NCBI GenBank assembly: GCA_035626775.1
Contig: DASPNA010000078.1
Coordinates: 42,771-106,770 of the forward strand
Length of the DNA: 64,000 nt
Direction of reading: 5' to 3'
DNA from: Thermoanaerobaculia bacterium
Lineage (GTDB): Bacteria > Acidobacteriota > Thermoanaerobaculia > Gp7-AA8
The notes beneath the pieces were generated by a model that worked only from the letters and a program-made list of their open reading frames with translations, was not told the DNA's origin and did no database searches. Each line of letters starts with the position of its first letter. The stretch's first letter is position 1. Of this stretch, positions 23,124 to 60,423 are shown piece by piece. Made by a program: the position numbers and the translations under genes.

Positions 23124-23220
23124 CGAGGGGTCCCTCGGGTTCCTCGGTTCCTCGGGTTCCTCGGTGGGATAGGTTGCCCAATCGCCCACCCCGAGGAACC
23201 CGAGGAACCCCGAGGAACCG
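23124..23220. repeat. Palindromic element family 1
   Basis: gaggggtccctcgggttcctcggttcctcgggttcctcgg ... ccgaggaacccgaggaaccccgaggaaccg, between convergent genes. Confidence 0.75.
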
Positions 23221-28571: not shown

Positions 28572-28637
28572 CTGGAGCGACGGGCTCTCAGCCCGTCGAG
28601 CCCTGCATTTCGACGGGCCGAGAGCCCGTCGCTCCAG
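28572..28637. repeat. Palindromic element family 3, full copy
   Basis: ctggagcgacgggctctcagcccgtcg agccctgcatttcga cgggccgagagcccgtcgctccag. Confidence 0.75.
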
Positions 28638-28651
28638 TTCAGCTCCCGATT

Positions 28652-29779
28652 TTACGCCGGTCTTGGTCTCGCGCCCGCCGACGCAGGCGGACCCTGCGGG
28701 ACGATGGCGCCCGCGCCGCGCGAGATCATCTCCTGCAGCTCGTCCGGATTGGACGAGCGCGCCAACGCGGTCTGCAACGTGATCAGCTTCTTGAAGTACA
28801 GGGTCGCCAGCGACTGATTGAACGTCTGCATGCCGTACTTCGCCTGTCCGGTCTGCATCATCGAGTAGATCTGATGCACCTTGTCTTCACGGATGAGGTT
28901 GCGGATGGCGGGGTTCGGTACGAGGATCTCCATGGCCATGGCGCGGCCTTTTCCGTTCGCCTTGGGCAACAACGCCTGGCAGAGGATGCCTTCCAGCACG
29001 AACGACAACTGCGCGCGGATCTGCGGCTGCTGGTGCGCGGGAAAGACGTCGACGACGCGGTTGATCGTCTGCGCGGCCGAGTTCGTGTGCAGCGTGCCGA
29101 ACGTGAGGTGGCCCGTTTCGGCGATGCGCAGCGCCGACTCGATGGTCTCGAGGTCGCGCATCTCGCCGATGAGTACCACGTCGGGATCCTGACGCAGGGC
29201 GGACTTCAGCGAGTTGCCGAACGAGTGCGTATCGGCGTGCAGCTCGCGCTGGTTGACGATGCAGCTCTTGTGTTGATGGAGGAACTCGACCGGATCTTCG
29301 ATGGTGATGATGTGCTGATGGGTCTCGCGATTGATCTTGTCGATCATCGCGGCGAGCGTCGTCGATTTGCCCGAGCCGGTCGGACCGGTGACGAGCACGA
29401 GGCCGCGCGGCTTGCTGCAGATCTCTTCGACGACCGGCGGCAGTCCGAGCTCCTTGAAGCCGAGGATCTCGTACGGAATCTGCCGGTAGACCGCGGCCGT
29501 CGCGCCGCGCTGGTTGAAGATGTTCGCGCGGAAGCGCGCCAGCCCCTTGATGCCGAACGAAAGGTCGAGCTCGAGGTTTTCCTCGAAGCGATGCTTCTGC
29601 GCGTCGGTGAGCACCGAATACGCGAGCTGCTTGGTCTCCGGCGCGGTGAGCGGCGGGATGTCGAGCGGCACCAGCTTGCCGTCGATGCGAATCTGCGGAG
29701 GGGAGTTGGTCGTGACGTGGAGGTCGGAGCCTCCGCGCTCGACCATCGTCTTGAGGAGCTGGTGCAGTGTGATGGCCAT
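28652..29779 (-). CDS. pilT: Type IV pilus retraction ATPase
   Basis: MAITLHQLLKTMVERGGSDLH..., GPTGSGKSTTLAAMI (Walker A). ATG at 29779. The upstream ORF extension is derived from the AT-rich palindrome. Confidence 0.9.
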   Translation of the reverse strand: MAITLHQLLKTMVERGGSDLHVTTNSPPQIRIDGKLVPLDIPPLTAPETKQLAYSVLTDAQKHRFEENLELDLSFGIKGLARFRANIFNQRGATAAVYRQIPYEILGFKELGLPPVVEEICSKPRGLVLVTGPTGSGKSTTLAAMIDKINRETHQHIITIEDPVEFLHQHKSCIVNQRELHADTHSFGNSLKSALRQDPDVVLIGEMRDLETIESALRIAETGHLTFGTLHTNSAAQTINRVVDVFPAHQQPQIRAQLSFVLEGILCQALLPKANGKGRAMAMEILVPNPAIRNLIREDKVHQIYSMMQTGQAKYGMQTFNQSLATLYFKKLITLQTALARSSNPDELQEMISRGAGAIVPQGPPASAGARPRPA

Positions 29780-29815
29780 TGGTCCTGTCTCTCCAGTGCT
29801 ACATGCTTCGCGAGT

Positions 29816-29918
29816 GGAAATTGAAAATTGAAAATTGAAAATTGAAAAATCGGACTCCGGGTCGCGCGAGGCACCGACTTTCGTTTTTTCAATTTTCAAT
29901 TTTCAATTTTCAATTTCG
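29816..29918. repeat. AT-rich palindrome, (GAAAATT)x4 ... (CAATTTT)x4, family 5
   Basis: ggaaattgaaaattgaaaattgaaaattgaaaaatcgg ... ccgactttcgttttttcaattttcaattttcaattttcaatttcg. A stem of about 33 bp, between pilB and pilT. Confidence 0.8.
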
Positions 29919-29925
29919 TTTTCTC

Positions 29926-31641
29926 CTAAGCGACCGTCTCGCGAACGACTTCCTCGACGGTGGTCATACCTTCCTTGATTTTAATCAGCCCGGAGCGGCG
30001 CAGCGTGATCATGCCGTTCTCGATGGCCTTCTTCTTGATGTCGATGGCGGTGCCGCCTGCGAGAATGAGGTCGCGGATGTCGTCATCGATCTGCATGACT
30101 TCGATGAGACCGACGCGGCCTTTGTAGCCCGTGTTGTTGCACTTCTCGCAGCCTCGGCCTTTGTAAATCGTGAACGTCCCCACTTCCTCTTTCTTGTAGC
30201 CGAGGTTGGCGACGGCCTGATTGGTCATGTCGACGGCCTCCTTGCAGTTGGCGCAGATGCGCCGCACGAGACGCTGTGCGGCGATGAGCTGCGTCGCGGT
30301 GGCCACCAGGAAGGGCTCGATGCCCATGTTCATGAGGCGGTTGATGGTCGAGGGCGCGTCGTTCGTGTGCAGCGTCGACAGCACGAGGTGACCGGTCAGC
30401 GCAGCCTTGATCGCGATCTCCGCGGTTTCGAAGTCGCGGATCTCGCCGACCAGGATGATGTTCGGATCCTGGCGCAGGAACGAGCGCAGCGTGGCCGCGA
30501 AGTTGAGGCCGATCTGCTCCTTCATCTGCACCTGGTTGATCCCCGGCAGGTTGAACTCGACCGGATCTTCGGCGGTCATGATGTTCACTTCGGGCGAATT
30601 CACCTTCGAAAGTGCCGAGTACAGCGTGTTGGTCTTGCCCGAGCCGGTCGGCCCGGTGACGAGCACCATGCCCCACGGCTTGAAGATCGCTTCCTCGAAG
30701 CGCACGAGCGATTCCGGCTCGAATCCGAGCTTGGTCATGTCGAGACGGAGGTTGTCCTTGTCGAGCAGCCGCATGACGATCTTCTCGCCGAAGAGCGTCG
30801 GCAGCACCGAGACGCGGAAATCGAGCTCCTTGTTCTTGTCCTCGAGCTTGATCTTCAGCTTGATGCGGCCGTCCTGCGGCAGGCGCTTCTCCGAGATGTC
30901 GAGCTTCGAGAGAATCTTCATGCGCGAGGTCATGGCGTCCTTCAGCTTCAAGGGCGGATTCATGATCTCGTACAGGATGCCGTCGATGCGGAAGCGGACG
31001 CGATACTCCTTCTCGTACGGCTCGATGTGGATGTCGGAAGCACCGCGCTTGATGGCATCGGTAAGAATCAGGTTGCACAGCTTGACGACCGGCGCCTCCT
31101 CGGCGGAATCCGCGAGGGCGCTGACATCCATCTCCTCGTCTTCCTCGAGCACTTCGAGGTCGGCGCTCTCCTGGGTCTGAAGGTCTTCCATGACCTTCTT
31201 CAGCTCGAGCGAGGAAGTGGTGCCGTAGTAACTGTCGATGGCGGCCTTGATCCCGAGCTCGGAAGCTACGACCGGCTCGACGTTGTAGCCGGTCATGAAC
31301 TTGATGTCGTCCATGGCGAAGACGTTCGTCGGATCGGCCATGGCGATGGTGATCGTGGCGCCGGTCTTGTTGACCGGGAGGATGTTGTACTTGCGGGCGA
31401 CGTCGCCGGGGATCAGCTTGATCACGCCGGCGTCGATCTCGAAGTGCTGGAGGTTGATCGACGGCACACCGAACTGCTGGCTGAGGCACTCGGTGATGTC
31501 TTCTTCGGAGACGAAGCCGAGCTTGATCAGCGTTTCGCCGAGCTTGCCGCCGGTCTCCTTCTGGACGCGGAGCGCTTCCTTGAGCTGATCCTGCGAGATC
31601 AGGCTCGCTTTGGTGAGCAACTCACCGAGACGGACACTCAT
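29926..31641 (-). CDS. pilB: Type IV pilus assembly ATPase (GspE family)
   Basis: N-terminal GSPII_E_N-like domain, GPTGSGKTNTLYSAL Walker A, and a CxxC...CxxC tetracysteine motif. Confidence 0.9.
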   Translation of the reverse strand: MSVRLGELLTKASLISQDQLKEALRVQKETGGKLGETLIKLGFVSEEDITECLSQQFGVPSINLQHFEIDAGVIKLIPGDVARKYNILPVNKTGATITIAMADPTNVFAMDDIKFMTGYNVEPVVASELGIKAAIDSYYGTTSSLELKKVMEDLQTQESADLEVLEEDEEMDVSALADSAEEAPVVKLCNLILTDAIKRGASDIHIEPYEKEYRVRFRIDGILYEIMNPPLKLKDAMTSRMKILSKLDISEKRLPQDGRIKLKIKLEDKNKELDFRVSVLPTLFGEKIVMRLLDKDNLRLDMTKLGFEPESLVRFEEAIFKPWGMVLVTGPTGSGKTNTLYSALSKVNSPEVNIMTAEDPVEFNLPGINQVQMKEQIGLNFAATLRSFLRQDPNIILVGEIRDFETAEIAIKAALTGHLVLSTLHTNDAPSTINRLMNMGIEPFLVATATQLIAAQRLVRRICANCKEAVDMTNQAVANLGYKKEEVGTFTIYKGRGCEKCNNTGYKGRVGLIEVMQIDDDIRDLILAGGTAIDIKKKAIENGMITLRRSGLIKIKEGMTTVEEVVRETVA

Positions 31642-32490: not shown

Positions 32491-33407
32491 TCCGCGGTGA
32501 CCCTTCCCAGCATCGTCATCACCTCTTCAACACTTATCGAGTCCATCCATTTCGTGGTGGAAAAACGGTCGATGCAATGTTGCAGTTGGTGATACGGACC
32601 GTTGCGCCGTGGATTGGTCGGGCCGTAGAGGCCGATGACCTTCGTCCCGAGCGCGTCCGCGAGGTGCAGCGGGCCGGTGTCGCCGCCGATGACGACCTCT
32701 GCACTTTGGAGCAGACCTGCAAGCTCACGCAGGTTCGTCGACGGCGCGATACGAGCTCCGATCGCTTCCGCGAGCTCCCGTTCTCCCGGCCCCCACGCCG
32801 CGACCGCGCGCGGACCGATGCGCTTTGCGAGCTCGCGAAAACGCTCGACGGGCCACAGTTTGTTGGCCTTTCCGGCACCCGGGAGCAGGACGATGGAGTT
32901 TTCATAGCCAGGAACCGGAACCGCGAAATCGTCCCAATTCTGGAGCGACGGGCTCTCAGCCCGTCGGGTCTCGAGGTCGACCGGCTGAGAGCCCGTCGCT
33001 CCAGATGCGAGCTGCAGGTTTTGATCGATGACGTGCGACGCCGCATCGACACGTACGTGGCGGTTCGTGAACAGGAGCGCGGCTTTCTCGCGGATGGCGT
33101 GGCGATCGAATCCGTATCGCGTTTTCGCACCTGACAACCATCCGAGCGCCGCCGATTTGATCAGTCCCTGAAAGTCGACAGATGCATCGAAGCCGCGCGC
33201 GCTGCGAATCGCGCGAATGGCAGCTCGCGGTTCTTTCTTCATGCGCACCGGCAGCACCTCCACACCCGCGACGATCTCCACGAGCTCGCGATACGGCGCT
33301 TCGACGACCCACGTGACGTCCGCCGCGTTCTTGAGCGACACGACCGCGGGGATGGTGTGAATGACGTCGCCGAGTGCTGACAGACGAAGGACGAGCAGAC
33401 GGCTCAT
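32487..33407 (-). CDS. Glycosyltransferase family 9 (ADP-heptose:LPS heptosyltransferase-like)
   Basis: [22 protein letters not shown]...[24 protein letters not shown] (GT9 signature). ATGA overlap with hldC at 33404-33407. Contains an in-frame family-3 repeat. Confidence 0.8.
32940..33004. repeat. Palindromic element family 3, full copy embedded in-frame within the GT9 CDS
   Basis: ctggagcgacgggctctcagcccgtcg ggtctcgaggtcgac cggctgagagcccgtcgctccag. Translated on the minus strand as [21 protein letters not shown]. Confidence 0.75.
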
Positions 33408-48224: not shown

Positions 48225-49280
48225 TCAGGCGATCCGAGAACGAGCCTCGACACGCCGCGGATCGCCGGCGTTGCCTTTTTGTAACCCCGCGAACGCGATC
48301 ATGGCCGCGTTGTCGGTGCAATAGCGCTTCTCCGGCAGGCGCACCACCACGCCGCGATGCTCGCCCCACGCGAGCATCCGCTCGCGGATGACTCCGTTGG
48401 CCGCCACACCGCCTGCAAGCGCCACCGCTTCGGGCTTCTCCCCTTCCAACCGCTGCCATATCGAATCGAGGCGATCGAAGAGTTGCGCGACGAGCGCTTC
48501 CTGAAAGGTCGCGCAGAAATCCTGGAACAACGGGCTCTCGGCCCATTCCGGATTTTCGTCGGGCTGAGAGCCCGTCGTTCCAGCCTGGATGGCGTGCTCG
48601 CGCGCGAGCCGGATCGCACCCGCTTTCAGGCCGCTATACGAAAAGTCCAACGACTCGTCGCGGAACTGCGGCACGACGAACGGGAACCGCTTCGCATCGA
48701 CCTTGCCGGCGCGTCCGTGTTTTTCGATCTCCGGCCCTCCGGGATACGGCAGGCCAATGAACTTCGCGACTTTGTCGAAGGTCTCGCCGATCGCATCATC
48801 GCGCGTGCGATTGAGCTGGCGGATGTCGCTGCCGCGCACGTCGTAGATCGCGGAGTGGCCACCGGAGATCACGAGCGAGAGAAAGCGCGCCGGCAACGGC
48901 AGCGCCGCTCCTTCGCGTTGCAGAAAAGGCGAGTAGATGTGACCTTCGAGATGATTGACGGGCATCAGCGGAATGCCCAATCCGTACGCGAGTCCCTGCG
49001 CGCCGGCCACGCCGACGAGCAACGCGCCGATCAATCCCGGACCCGACGTCACCGCAATCGAGTCGACGTCACTCCATTGCGCATTCGCGTCACCAAGCGC
49101 GCGCTCGACGAGCGGAAACAGATGCTGCAGATGCTCGCGCGACGCGATCTCCGGCACCACGCCGCCGAACGGCTGATGCCGCGCGATCTGCGAGTTGATC
49201 AGGTTCACGCGCACGTTCCCGTCGCGCTCGAGCAGAGCGACGGAAGTCTCGTCGCAGGACGTTTCGATTCCGAGGATCAC
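48225..49280 (-). CDS. tsaD: tRNA N6-adenosine threonylcarbamoyltransferase
   Basis: MILGIETSCDETSVAL..., HLEGH and GGVAAN motifs. Confidence 0.9.
   Translation of the reverse strand: MILGIETSCDETSVALLERDGNVRVNLINSQIARHQPFGGVVPEIASREHLQHLFPLVERALGDANAQWSDVDSIAVTSGPGLIGALLVGVAGAQGLAYGLGIPLMPVNHLEGHIYSPFLQREGAALPLPARFLSLVISGGHSAIYDVRGSDIRQLNRTRDDAIGETFDKVAKFIGLPYPGGPEIEKHGRAGKVDAKRFPFVVPQFRDESLDFSYSGLKAGAIRLAREHAIQAGTTGSQPDENPEWAESPLFQDFCATFQEALVAQLFDRLDSIWQRLEGEKPEAVALAGGVAANGVIRERMLAWGEHRGVVVRLPEKRYCTDNAAMIAFAGLQKGNAGDPRRVEARSRIA
48557..48583. repeat. Half copy of palindromic element family 3, in-frame inside tsaD
   Basis: cgtcgggctgagagcccgtcgttccag, translated as ...TTGSQPDENPEWAESPLFQ... 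Confidence 0.65.
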
Positions 49281-49328: not shown

Positions 49329-49477
49329 CAGAGTCTCAGAGTCTCAGAGTCTCAGAGGGTCGGTGGGACTCGCCGTTTTCAGAGCGGAGCAATCCGCGTT
49401 ACCGGAAATTCAGAGAAACGCCCGTCCCCACGACCCTCTGAGACTCTGAGACTCTGAGACTCTGAGACTCTGAGACT
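49329..49477. repeat. Palindromic element family 2, large copy
   Basis: (cagagtct)x3-4 gagggtcggtgggac ... gtccccacgaccctc (tgagactc)x4. Confidence 0.8.
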
Positions 49478-60325: not shown

Positions 60326-60423
60326 GAGTTCCTCGGGTTCCTCGGTTCCTCGGAGGGGAACGCGATGTGATGCTCCTCCCCTCCGAGGGACCCGAGGTAC
60401 TCCGAGGAACCCGAGGAACTCAC
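60326..60423. repeat. Palindromic element family 1
   Basis: gagttcctcgggttcctcggttcctcggaggggaa ... ccctccgagggacccgaggtactccgaggaacccgaggaactc. Confidence 0.75.

Follow-up and report, generated by a model that had tools for sequence, protein, structure and literature searches.

The window analyzed here, i.e., the entire 64,000-nt stretch of DNA from a Thermoanaerobaculia bacterium, contains type IV pilus genes in the order pilB, pilT, pilC and a gene for a PilS-like kinase, all on the minus strand, and most of the 146-nt gap between pilB and pilT is occupied by an inverted repeat (29817-29917) with arms of tandem GAAAATT heptamers. The genes on either side of this gap were identified from profile matches to the type IV pilus assembly ATPase (pilB, 29926..31641, 571 aa; TIGR02538, 798 bits, above the curated cut-off) and the twitching-motility ATPase (pilT, 28652..29779, 375 aa; TIGR01420, 505 bits), in agreement with the location given for the repeat in the original prediction. 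In comparisons with other genomes, the repeat was found to belong to a multi-copy family, and the same arms were found in related genomes around a gene of the PF05635 (S23p) family. The window repeat is probably (a chance of roughly 60% in our estimate) a copy, without an open reading frame (ORF), of a repeat element resembling the intervening sequences (IVSs) of 23S rRNA, the full-length relatives of which enclose a PF05635/S23p gene, and any effect on pilB-pilT RNA would then be incidental.

The pilB-pilT hairpin

Arm 1 (29817..29849, 33 nt), which reads GAAATT, three GAAAATT units and GAAAAA on the plus strand, i.e., 4.4 heptamer units, and arm 2 (29885..29917), which reads TTTTTC, three AATTTTC units and AATTTC, are exact reverse complements separated by a 35-nt, GC-rich centre (29850..29884) that is unique to the window copy. 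In the minus-strand mRNA, arm 2 is the 5' arm, beginning 9 nt past the pilB stop codon (TAA, 29926-29928), and arm 1 is the 3' arm (UUUUUCAAUUUUC...CAAUUUC). Between the element and the pilT start codon (ATG, 29777-29779) there are 37 nt (29780..29816, minus strand), which include the ribosome-binding site GGAGAG (29789-29794).

The structure was evident from several searches. Thus, Tandem Repeats Finder reported 29818-29848 and 29886-29916 as repeats of period 7, each with 4.4 copies and 100% matches, an inverted-repeat search returned 36-nt arms (29817-29852 and 29882-29917) that were 97% complementary, and a separate palindrome scan gave perfect complementarity over 33 nt per arm with a loop of 35 nt. 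The predicted A/T-rich stem of about 33 bp was therefore confirmed; the further description of the feature as a perfect palindrome of about 100 bp holds for the arms but not for the centre, which is barely self-complementary. The window was 63.5% GC, as opposed to the value of about 67% originally stated for the genome. Eight matches to the 14-mer GAAAATTGAAAATT (no more than two mismatches) were noted in the window, all inside the element, compared with 0.04 predicted from shuffled sequences. The mRNA-sense (minus-strand) RNA was predicted to fold at -50.8 kcal/mol (z = -5.6), and none of 200 shuffled sequences was equally stable. Two other metagenome assemblies also contained this locus, with 100% identity over the gap, which indicates that the hairpin is not an assembly artefact. 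A myxobacterial origin of the window, first suggested by pil gene order and GC content, was rejected, as an identical PilT protein is listed by NCBI under Thermoanaerobaculia and related loci are from Acidobacteriota. Searches of the window against Rfam 15 gave no match at gathering thresholds and no rRNA, and a permissive scan gave only generic miRNA-precursor hairpins far below threshold.

A dispersed family of GAAAATT palindromes

Other copies, for which a search had been suggested with the original prediction, were readily found. An exact-match scan of public genomes (two units, 20-50 nt and two inverted units; one genome per species) gave more than 116 genomic stretches among the matches listed, mostly from metagenome-assembled genomes (MAGs) of Thermoanaerobaculia and other Acidobacteriota, with several copies per MAG. 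Further matches with the same termini (AATTGAAAATTG...CAATTTTCAATT) were noted in Bacteroidota (including the isolate Parabacteroides segnis BX2), Verrucomicrobiota, Nitrospinota, Planctomycetota and Chloroflexota. For 89 copies from high-GC loci that were analyzed in detail, the outer ends were sharp (G/AATTG...CAATT/C, with the slash at the boundary), the most frequent arm lengths were 30 and 30 nt, and other arms differed by steps of 7 nt. Centres ranged from 8 to 47 nt (median, 30 nt), were 65% GC, differed in each copy and were no more structured than shuffled sequences (mean z = -0.44). None of the 89 copies was intragenic. The upstream stop codon was at a median distance of 4 nt, and within the outer arm in approximately 38% of copies, while the next start codon was approximately 24 nt away. 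Numbers of copies in co-directional, convergent and divergent gaps (50, 15 and 12, respectively) matched those of adjacent gene pairs from the same loci (287, 82 and 82), indicating no bias of the family for any type of gap.

Side observations on this family concerned more widely spaced arms and paired copies. Thus, GAAAATT arms at locus L079 were 2.5 kb apart with ORFs between them, for which reason an autonomous transposase enclosed by distant arms was considered until L044 (see below) provided a clearer case, and two GAAAATT-type palindromes of a Nitrospinota MAG (L047, 1581-1671 and 4363-4460), 2.8 kb apart, had about 30 nt of common flank on each side (CTGTCGCTGCGCTCC... and ...GCGACCTTCTCCGAAGGTCGCTAGC), so that this pair may be embedded in a larger repeat. 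Palindromes with periodic arms were not limited to GAAAATT units; 51 more, with approximately 40 different units that were mostly 7-mers, were found in about 1.08 Mb of Acidobacteriota DNA.

The architecture of tandem units in inverted arms was also shared, as had been proposed, by other families in the window, where five more such palindromes were found. Three of these (11860-11944, 23128-23219 and 60328-60421) have arms of three to four tandem units of approximately GTTCCTCGG (8-10 nt) and centres that are all different, one lying between convergent genes and two between co-directional genes. The other two (12535-12627 and 49329-49477) have 8-nt GAGTCTCA units, and the latter lies between divergent genes and has a 66-nt, partly self-complementary centre. 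Four copies of a family resembling repetitive extragenic palindromic (REP) sequences (15737-15793, 28572-28637, 32939-33005 and 48522-48583) have non-periodic arms of 23-28 nt (CTGGAGCGACGGGCTCTCAGCCCGTCG) and a loop of 10-16 nt, and one copy fills the pilT-pilC gap. An 80-nt tandem repeat (12054-12358; 3.8 copies, approximately 75% matches) is present in the long stretch of intergenic DNA that separates two of the tandem-unit palindromes.

Gain, loss and concerted change among relatives

Synteny of pilB and pilT was noted across 80 Acidobacteriota metagenome loci, at which the usual gap was 10-35 nt with only a ribosome-binding site. Nine close relatives had pilT approximately 90% identical in nucleotide sequence to that of the window and 91-97% identical among themselves, and in six of the nine the gap was without arms, 14-39 nt long and limited to a ribosome-binding site. 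Gaps of 14-39 nt were recorded at loci L199-L201, L203 and L205-L208. The homologue of the right flank of the window element was retained at L205, which lacks arms, and was also present beside sister elements at L202 and L204, and this retention at L205 indicates that the flank (i.e., the DNA between the element and pilT) is native and that the element is an insert. At L202, an element in the same position and with homologous flanks consisted of AATTGAGAATTGAGAATTGAGAATTGAGAATTG, 14 nt and the exact complement, with GAGAATT in place of GAAAATT in all units of both arms. In a decayed element at L204, four GAGGATT-type units on one side faced just one on the other, and in the ninth relative (the contig carrying P0016) the called genes leave a gap of 149 nt. 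A second site, just past the stop codon of a gene for an NYN-domain protein, was occupied by GAAAATT units in L035 and by GAGAATT units in L199 and L202 and was empty in the window and in L203.

Neighbouring gaps were no more constant. Those between pilT and pilC, between pilC and pilS and between the genes for a forkhead-associated (FHA) protein and a methyl-accepting chemotaxis protein (MCP) contained other unit families in some species and were empty in others. The pilC-pilS and FHA-MCP gaps, although empty in the window, held palindromes of AGAGGGC or AGAGCGC units in L199 (12454-12519 and 2170-2252) and L203 (approximately 2070-2160), and the order of these unit variants was a mosaic that was not mirrored between arms. 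The pilT-pilC gap contained an (AGCTNTT)n palindrome in L199 (approximately 11130-11240) as opposed to a single GTAAGCTGTTAGG in L203 (approximately 11130-11175), which could be the starting point of an array that was built in place or the remnant of a deletion. Judged from these comparisons, the element is dispersed and rapidly gained and lost and is not a conserved pil device.

Compensatory changes of the units were noted when copies were aligned, although few sequences were involved and the changes were not independent. Over the 33-pair stem of the aligned copies, 93% of cells were paired, and two-sided changes, from A-U to G-C and once per unit, were present in seven stem pairs (12 cells), a result that was reached by none of 500 shuffles and to which slid controls came nowhere near. 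Arms remained complementary and uniform while flanks drifted to approximately 70% identity and centres became unalignable. The orthologous centres of L199 and L202 were still identical at approximately 16 of 21 bases, from which it follows that centres drift at an ordinary rate and that they are not hypervariable, as had also been considered. We infer that the uniformity of arms is kept by slippage within arrays together with arm-to-arm correction by template switching, possibly with participation of a trans-acting factor. Quasipalindrome correction of this kind is an established mutational mechanism in Escherichia coli. The change of unit at two sites within the lineage hints at either a trans-acting agent or re-insertion.

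PF05635 genes between heptamer arrays

A search of the retrieved loci for arms that were not closely paired led to L044, in which 30-nt GAAAATT arms surround a 383-nt centre with one ORF of 122 aa. The predicted product matched TIGR02436, 'four helix bundle protein' (E = 1e-20), and by this match is a member of PF05635, i.e., the 23S rRNA intervening-sequence protein S23p, which is homologous to Avd, the accessory protein of diversity-generating retroelements (DGRs) to which PF05635 corresponds (PMC10053308). Homologues 64-79% identical to the L044 protein were found in five other assemblies (L209, L214, L223, L225 and L226), in each case between GAAAATT arms of about four units, so that conservation is higher for the arms than for the protein that they enclose. 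All six Thermoanaerobaculia copies (L044 and these five) were at one locus, between two LigB-family genes. In L226, a segment made up of the right arm and approximately 45 nt of adjoining inner sequence was tandemly duplicated downstream of the PF05635 gene (730-950).

Similarity between the full-length elements and the short, ORF-less copies extended beyond the arms. Thus, the inner junctions of the former (TTGAAAGAT/ATG and TCCGAT/TTTTCAATT) match the ends of the centres (GATCGGA...TCCGATC) in approximately one quarter of the latter. In the window copy, one end of the centre (ATCGGA) belongs to this group and matches the 3' inner junction of the PF05635-gene element, and the opposite end (ACCGACTTTCG) is degenerate. 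An origin of the window and a PF05635 contig from the same MAG was considered and rejected, as their protein accession series differ.

The association of PF05635 genes with inverted heptamer arrays was not confined to GAAAATT. A second PF05635 gene, from a Bacteroidales locus, was flanked by (GTGAAAA)4 and its complement. A tblastn search of a plasmid collection gave 26 records, and inverted tandem arrays were present around the PF05635 gene in all ten that were examined. The flanking units were AAGTAAA in Nostoc TCL26-01, AAAGTAA in Anabaena cylindrica, AATTCAA in Nostoc flagelliforme (31-nt arms, 100% complementary), GTCGGAR in Nostoc punctiforme, ACCAGTG in Euhalothece, GAAAGNG in Treponema saccharophilum, GATTAGT in Bernardetia, CAGTNAN in Chondrinema and AATTAGG-type in Monoglobus; those of Pseudanabaena were longer repeats. 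Inverted tandem heptamer arrays thus flanked each of the 13 distinct PF05635 genes sampled from cellular genomes and plasmids of five phyla, the twelve outside the GAAAATT locus each with a unit of its own, and were present at approximately 12 of 21 PF05635 loci on viral contigs, one of which had AATTGAA units. A phage origin of the palindromes was considered and rejected, the palindrome pattern being absent from the viral contigs, on which array-flanked PF05635 genes do occur.

The surroundings of several of these genes were recorded as side observations. In plasmids of Nostoc sp. TCL26-01 (L217), Anabaena cylindrica (pANACY.01, L218) and Pseudanabaena (L220), the heptamer-armed PF05635 gene either separated cas2 from cas1 or immediately preceded cas1. 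An unannotated PF05635 copy was between hsdS and hsdR in Monoglobus (L229), and the copy of Nostoc punctiforme (L232) adjoins xisH. The arrays flanking the gene on the Chondrinema litorale plasmid (L230, 55-110 and 695-725) contain TAACTGA.

Interpretation of the element and its relation to known repeats

Among the closest known counterparts of the element is the 23S rRNA IVS of Coxiella burnetii and Leptospira, with which it shares a terminal stem (approximately 28-33 bp) and heptamers in the stem region, and with which its ORF-bearing relatives also share an enclosed gene of the same family, PF05635/TIGR02436; the Coxiella IVS contains the S23p ORF and has a 28-bp inverted-repeat stem that is cut by RNase III, with three GACAGAT units at the 5' cut site (PMC4990558). 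The window copy differs in that it is outside a 23S rRNA gene, in the mRNA gap between pilB and pilT rather than in helix 9, 25 or 45 of 23S rRNA, in that it has no ORF and in that many copies of it are dispersed. In Salmonella and Campylobacter, however, IVSs of approximately 100 nt that lack an ORF are known. Because its 35-nt centre holds no ORF, we class the window copy as an ORF-less relative of the IVS-type elements rather than as a full member.

Other resemblances are to dispersed repeats. The GGGAATC heptamers of Xanthomonas and GGGGAYT heptamers of Nostoc (Rehm et al., 2015; PMC4692102), like the short tandemly repeated repetitive (STRR) sequences of cyanobacteria, are intergenic tandem 7-mers, most often in arrays of four units. 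Each Xanthomonas genome has approximately 185 GGGAATC arrays, the majority with four units, and these include about 70-75 inverted pairs that are able to form stem-loops; the arrays lie near the upstream ORF (about 28 nt), and the contents of a given gap differ between related species; their function was left open, and no link to PF05635 was drawn (PMC4692102). The window copy fits this description of inverted heptamer pairs, with 4.4 units per arm, arms 35 nt apart and an intergenic position nearer the upstream ORF. The unit differs, that of Xanthomonas being G-rich, with the preference for four units ascribed to G-quadruplexes; as GAAAATT has the same mode but cannot form G-quadruplexes, this explanation of the preference is undercut. 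The TAACTGA repeats of Beggiatoaceae, Cyanobacteria and Bacteroidetes (MacGregor, 2015; PMC4679880) are likewise intergenic heptamer arrays (2-6 units), with one unit across distant phyla and an unexplained spread, but are almost all direct and just upstream of start codons; yet the same unit occurs in the PF05635-flanking arrays of Chondrinema. REP doublets that form hairpins (REPINs) and their REP-associated tyrosine transposases (RAYTs; Bertels and Rainey, 2011; PMC3116915) offer a parallel of another kind, since REPINs are dispersed extragenic hairpins with conserved inverted ends, a variable spacer and no target-site duplications, and a single-copy gene with the same flanking ends marks the likely trans-acting partner. 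REP ends, however, are short imperfect palindromes recognized by a Y1 HUH transposase, whereas GAAAATT arms are plain tandem heptamers that have no internal dyad and do not fold alone, and the gene that they flank codes for an Avd-like four-helix-bundle protein without known catalytic activity.

Correia/NEMIS and ERIC elements are repeats of approximately 100-150 bp that are co-transcribed with their neighbours and have inverted ends that fold into long RNA hairpins, with cleavage by RNase III (NEMIS) or altered mRNA decay as a consequence. They differ from the window element in that their terminal inverted repeats are of the classical type, without tandem sub-repeats, in that the interior is conserved and in that TA is duplicated at the target, and no PF05635 partner is known for them.

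The events at pilB-pilT under the IVS-like interpretation would be as follows. Within the lineage of the window, a copy of the element would have become fixed at a site 9 nt past the end of pilB, most sister lineages having no element there, and short copies would derive from ORF-bearing ones or the reverse. In the pilB-pilT transcript, the arms would pair into a perfect, A/U-rich duplex of 33 bp, considerably longer than the 20 bp or so that RNase III requires. This duplex would probably be cut by RNase III, as the stems of rRNA intervening sequences are; processing is plausible because the same arms flank S23p genes, and the 23S IVSs of this gene family are excised at a 28-bp stem. A cut would leave the 3' end of pilB unprotected and the 5' end of pilT monophosphorylated, so that the fates of the two messages would be uncoupled and their stabilities altered, both probably being modestly lowered. 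The effect on pil would be an incidental consequence rather than evolved control; the dispersal of the family, the absence of an element from the pilB-pilT gap of most relatives and the lack of gap-type bias of the family are best explained if the effect on pilB and pilT is a by-product. Thus, of the regulatory or RNA-processing role originally predicted, processing is plausible, while a device that evolved to uncouple pilT from pilB is at odds with the absence of the element from the six arm-less relatives.

Several observations weigh against this interpretation. No PF05635 gene was found in the 64-kb window, the centre of the window copy has no recognizable ORF remnant, and the similarities at the junctions are short (6-9 nt). 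The six GAAAATT-armed PF05635 genes represent one orthologous locus and so amount to a single independent association for this unit. The AATTCAA unit that flanks the PF05635 gene of Nostoc flagelliforme plasmid pNFSY05 was found nowhere else in the first 50 kb of this plasmid, and ORF-less dispersal is thus shown only for GAAAATT. The other palindrome families of the window have units of 8-10 nt and no established link to PF05635, and approximately 9 of the 21 viral PF05635 loci lack arrays, although these may be DGR-type Avd genes. As regards spread, no direct repeat of at least 3 nt that would indicate a target-site duplication was found at any of 88 copies, and complementarity of the flanks (2.65 of 8 positions, as opposed to 2.63 in a control) did not extend beyond the first G...C pair.

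Particular modes of insertion were considered separately. Insertion into pre-existing hairpins was ruled out, as the flanks were complementary only at the first G...C pair. An AAAACG repeat that brackets one window arm suggested that the two arms might have been inserted separately, each with a duplication, but family-wide similarity between flank and centre was equal to that of a shuffled control. A classical miniature inverted-repeat transposable element was rejected from the lack of target-site duplication and from centres that are unrelated save for the short ends common to one subfamily.

Among other explanations, an origin from purely local DNA metabolism, in which heptamer slippage and hairpin template switching (i.e., quasipalindrome correction) produce copies that are unrelated by descent, with no element or protein involved, accounts for the variety of units in the Acidobacteriota palindromes, for the concerted change of units within and between arms, for arm lengths that vary in 7-nt steps and for the resemblance of the pilT-pilC array of L199 to a sequence present once in L203. 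Slippage has also been proposed for an excess of heptamers, according to the account in PMC4692102, which cites Mrazek (2007). Such an origin leaves unexplained that units and termini are identical and inner junctions common to copies at more than 100 sites (among the matches listed) in six phyla, the constant association with PF05635 genes and the mode of four units, and is therefore unlikely as the whole explanation; slippage and template switching probably do operate to maintain the arms, which complements the IVS-like interpretation.

A bidirectional intrinsic terminator or attenuator, in which a hairpin of the GC-rich centre between A-rich and U-rich arms would partly stop transcription after pilB, is suggested by the order of A-rich arm, GC-rich centre and U-rich arm on both strands and by the short distance of copies from stop codons, to which the distance of Xanthomonas heptamer repeats from the upstream ORF is comparable (PMC4692102). 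We consider it quite unlikely. Structured terminator hairpins in the centres were rejected from the mean z of -0.44 given above, the full stem is A/U-rich and followed by CCACUCGCG with no U-run, and other families of the same architecture are GC-rich. In addition, a consensus terminator scan made no call at the element, and the share of copies in co-directional gaps (50 of 77) was like that of gene pairs generally (287 of 451), with no enrichment between convergent genes; the next start codon was often just 24 nt or so away, which leaves no space for a new promoter. These findings argue against a strong terminator.

A dedicated cis-regulatory element of pil, i.e., an attenuator or processing site that evolved to set the ratio of pilB to pilT, would be in keeping with the exact intercistronic position and very stable hairpin of the window copy. 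Other heptamer-unit palindromes were noted independently in the pilB-pilT gap of L140, L141, L153 and L156/L164, and partly palindromic fillers in that of L119 and L131, and recurrent occupation of this gap could reflect selection for a hairpin. This explanation is nevertheless very unlikely, given short, element-free gaps in the six close relatives and most of the 80 Acidobacteriota loci, the presence of the same element at the more than 116 unrelated sites listed, a distribution among gap types that equals background and pilT-pilC, pilC-pilS and FHA-MCP gaps that are filled just as haphazardly across species.

A portable promoter, with hexamers resembling -35 and -10 sites in the arms (TTGAAA ... 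GAAAAT) that drive pilT or antisense RNA independently of pilB, is similarly improbable, for although the region is only 14% GC in a 63.5% GC genome and the left arm of full-length elements is directly upstream of the PF05635 start codon, the arms of other families are not AT-rich and the sole match in the element (TTGAAA, 18 nt, AAAAAT; 9 of 12 positions) to a sigma-70-like consensus, which may not fit acidobacterial promoters, is a plus-strand one and thus antisense to both pil genes, with none on the pilT strand, and as it points the other way the element is not an obvious pilT promoter.

The IVS-like interpretation can be extended, tentatively and with less confidence than we place in it, to tandem-heptamer palindromes at large. 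These may be non-autonomous partners of PF05635 proteins, with arrays bound by a homopentameric ring, such as that formed by Xanthomonas S23p (PMC4990558), at about one unit per protomer, which would fit the mode of four to five units, and the protein would maintain, homogenize or spread the arrays in a manner resembling that of RAYTs and REPINs. The 23S IVS, cyanobacterial STRR sequences, Xanthomonas GGGAATC arrays and the window hairpin would thereby be united in a single, widespread system of protein and repeats that has so far gone undescribed.

Paired inverted heptamer arrays and IVSs, with their stem and S23p gene, are each already known. What appears to be new is an AT-rich GAAAATT family in Thermoanaerobaculia, present as short ORF-less hairpins in mRNA gaps, together with the arms and junctions common to these short copies and a PF05635 gene and the generality of heptamer arrays around PF05635 genes; no paper that links heptamer inverted repeats in general to PF05635 genes was found in full-text searches of a collection of open-access papers. 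For pilus biology the consequence is small, the hairpin being a lineage-specific passenger that may trim or split the pilB-pilT message. For the repeats it may be greater. Intergenic heptamers such as cyanobacterial STRR sequences, GGGAATC of Xanthomonas and TAACTGA of Beggiatoaceae have been recorded for decades without explanation, and the function of S23p is likewise unexplained apart from that of its DGR relative Avd. If the association of heptamer arrays with PF05635 genes holds, both puzzles would be open to ordinary experiments in cultured organisms.

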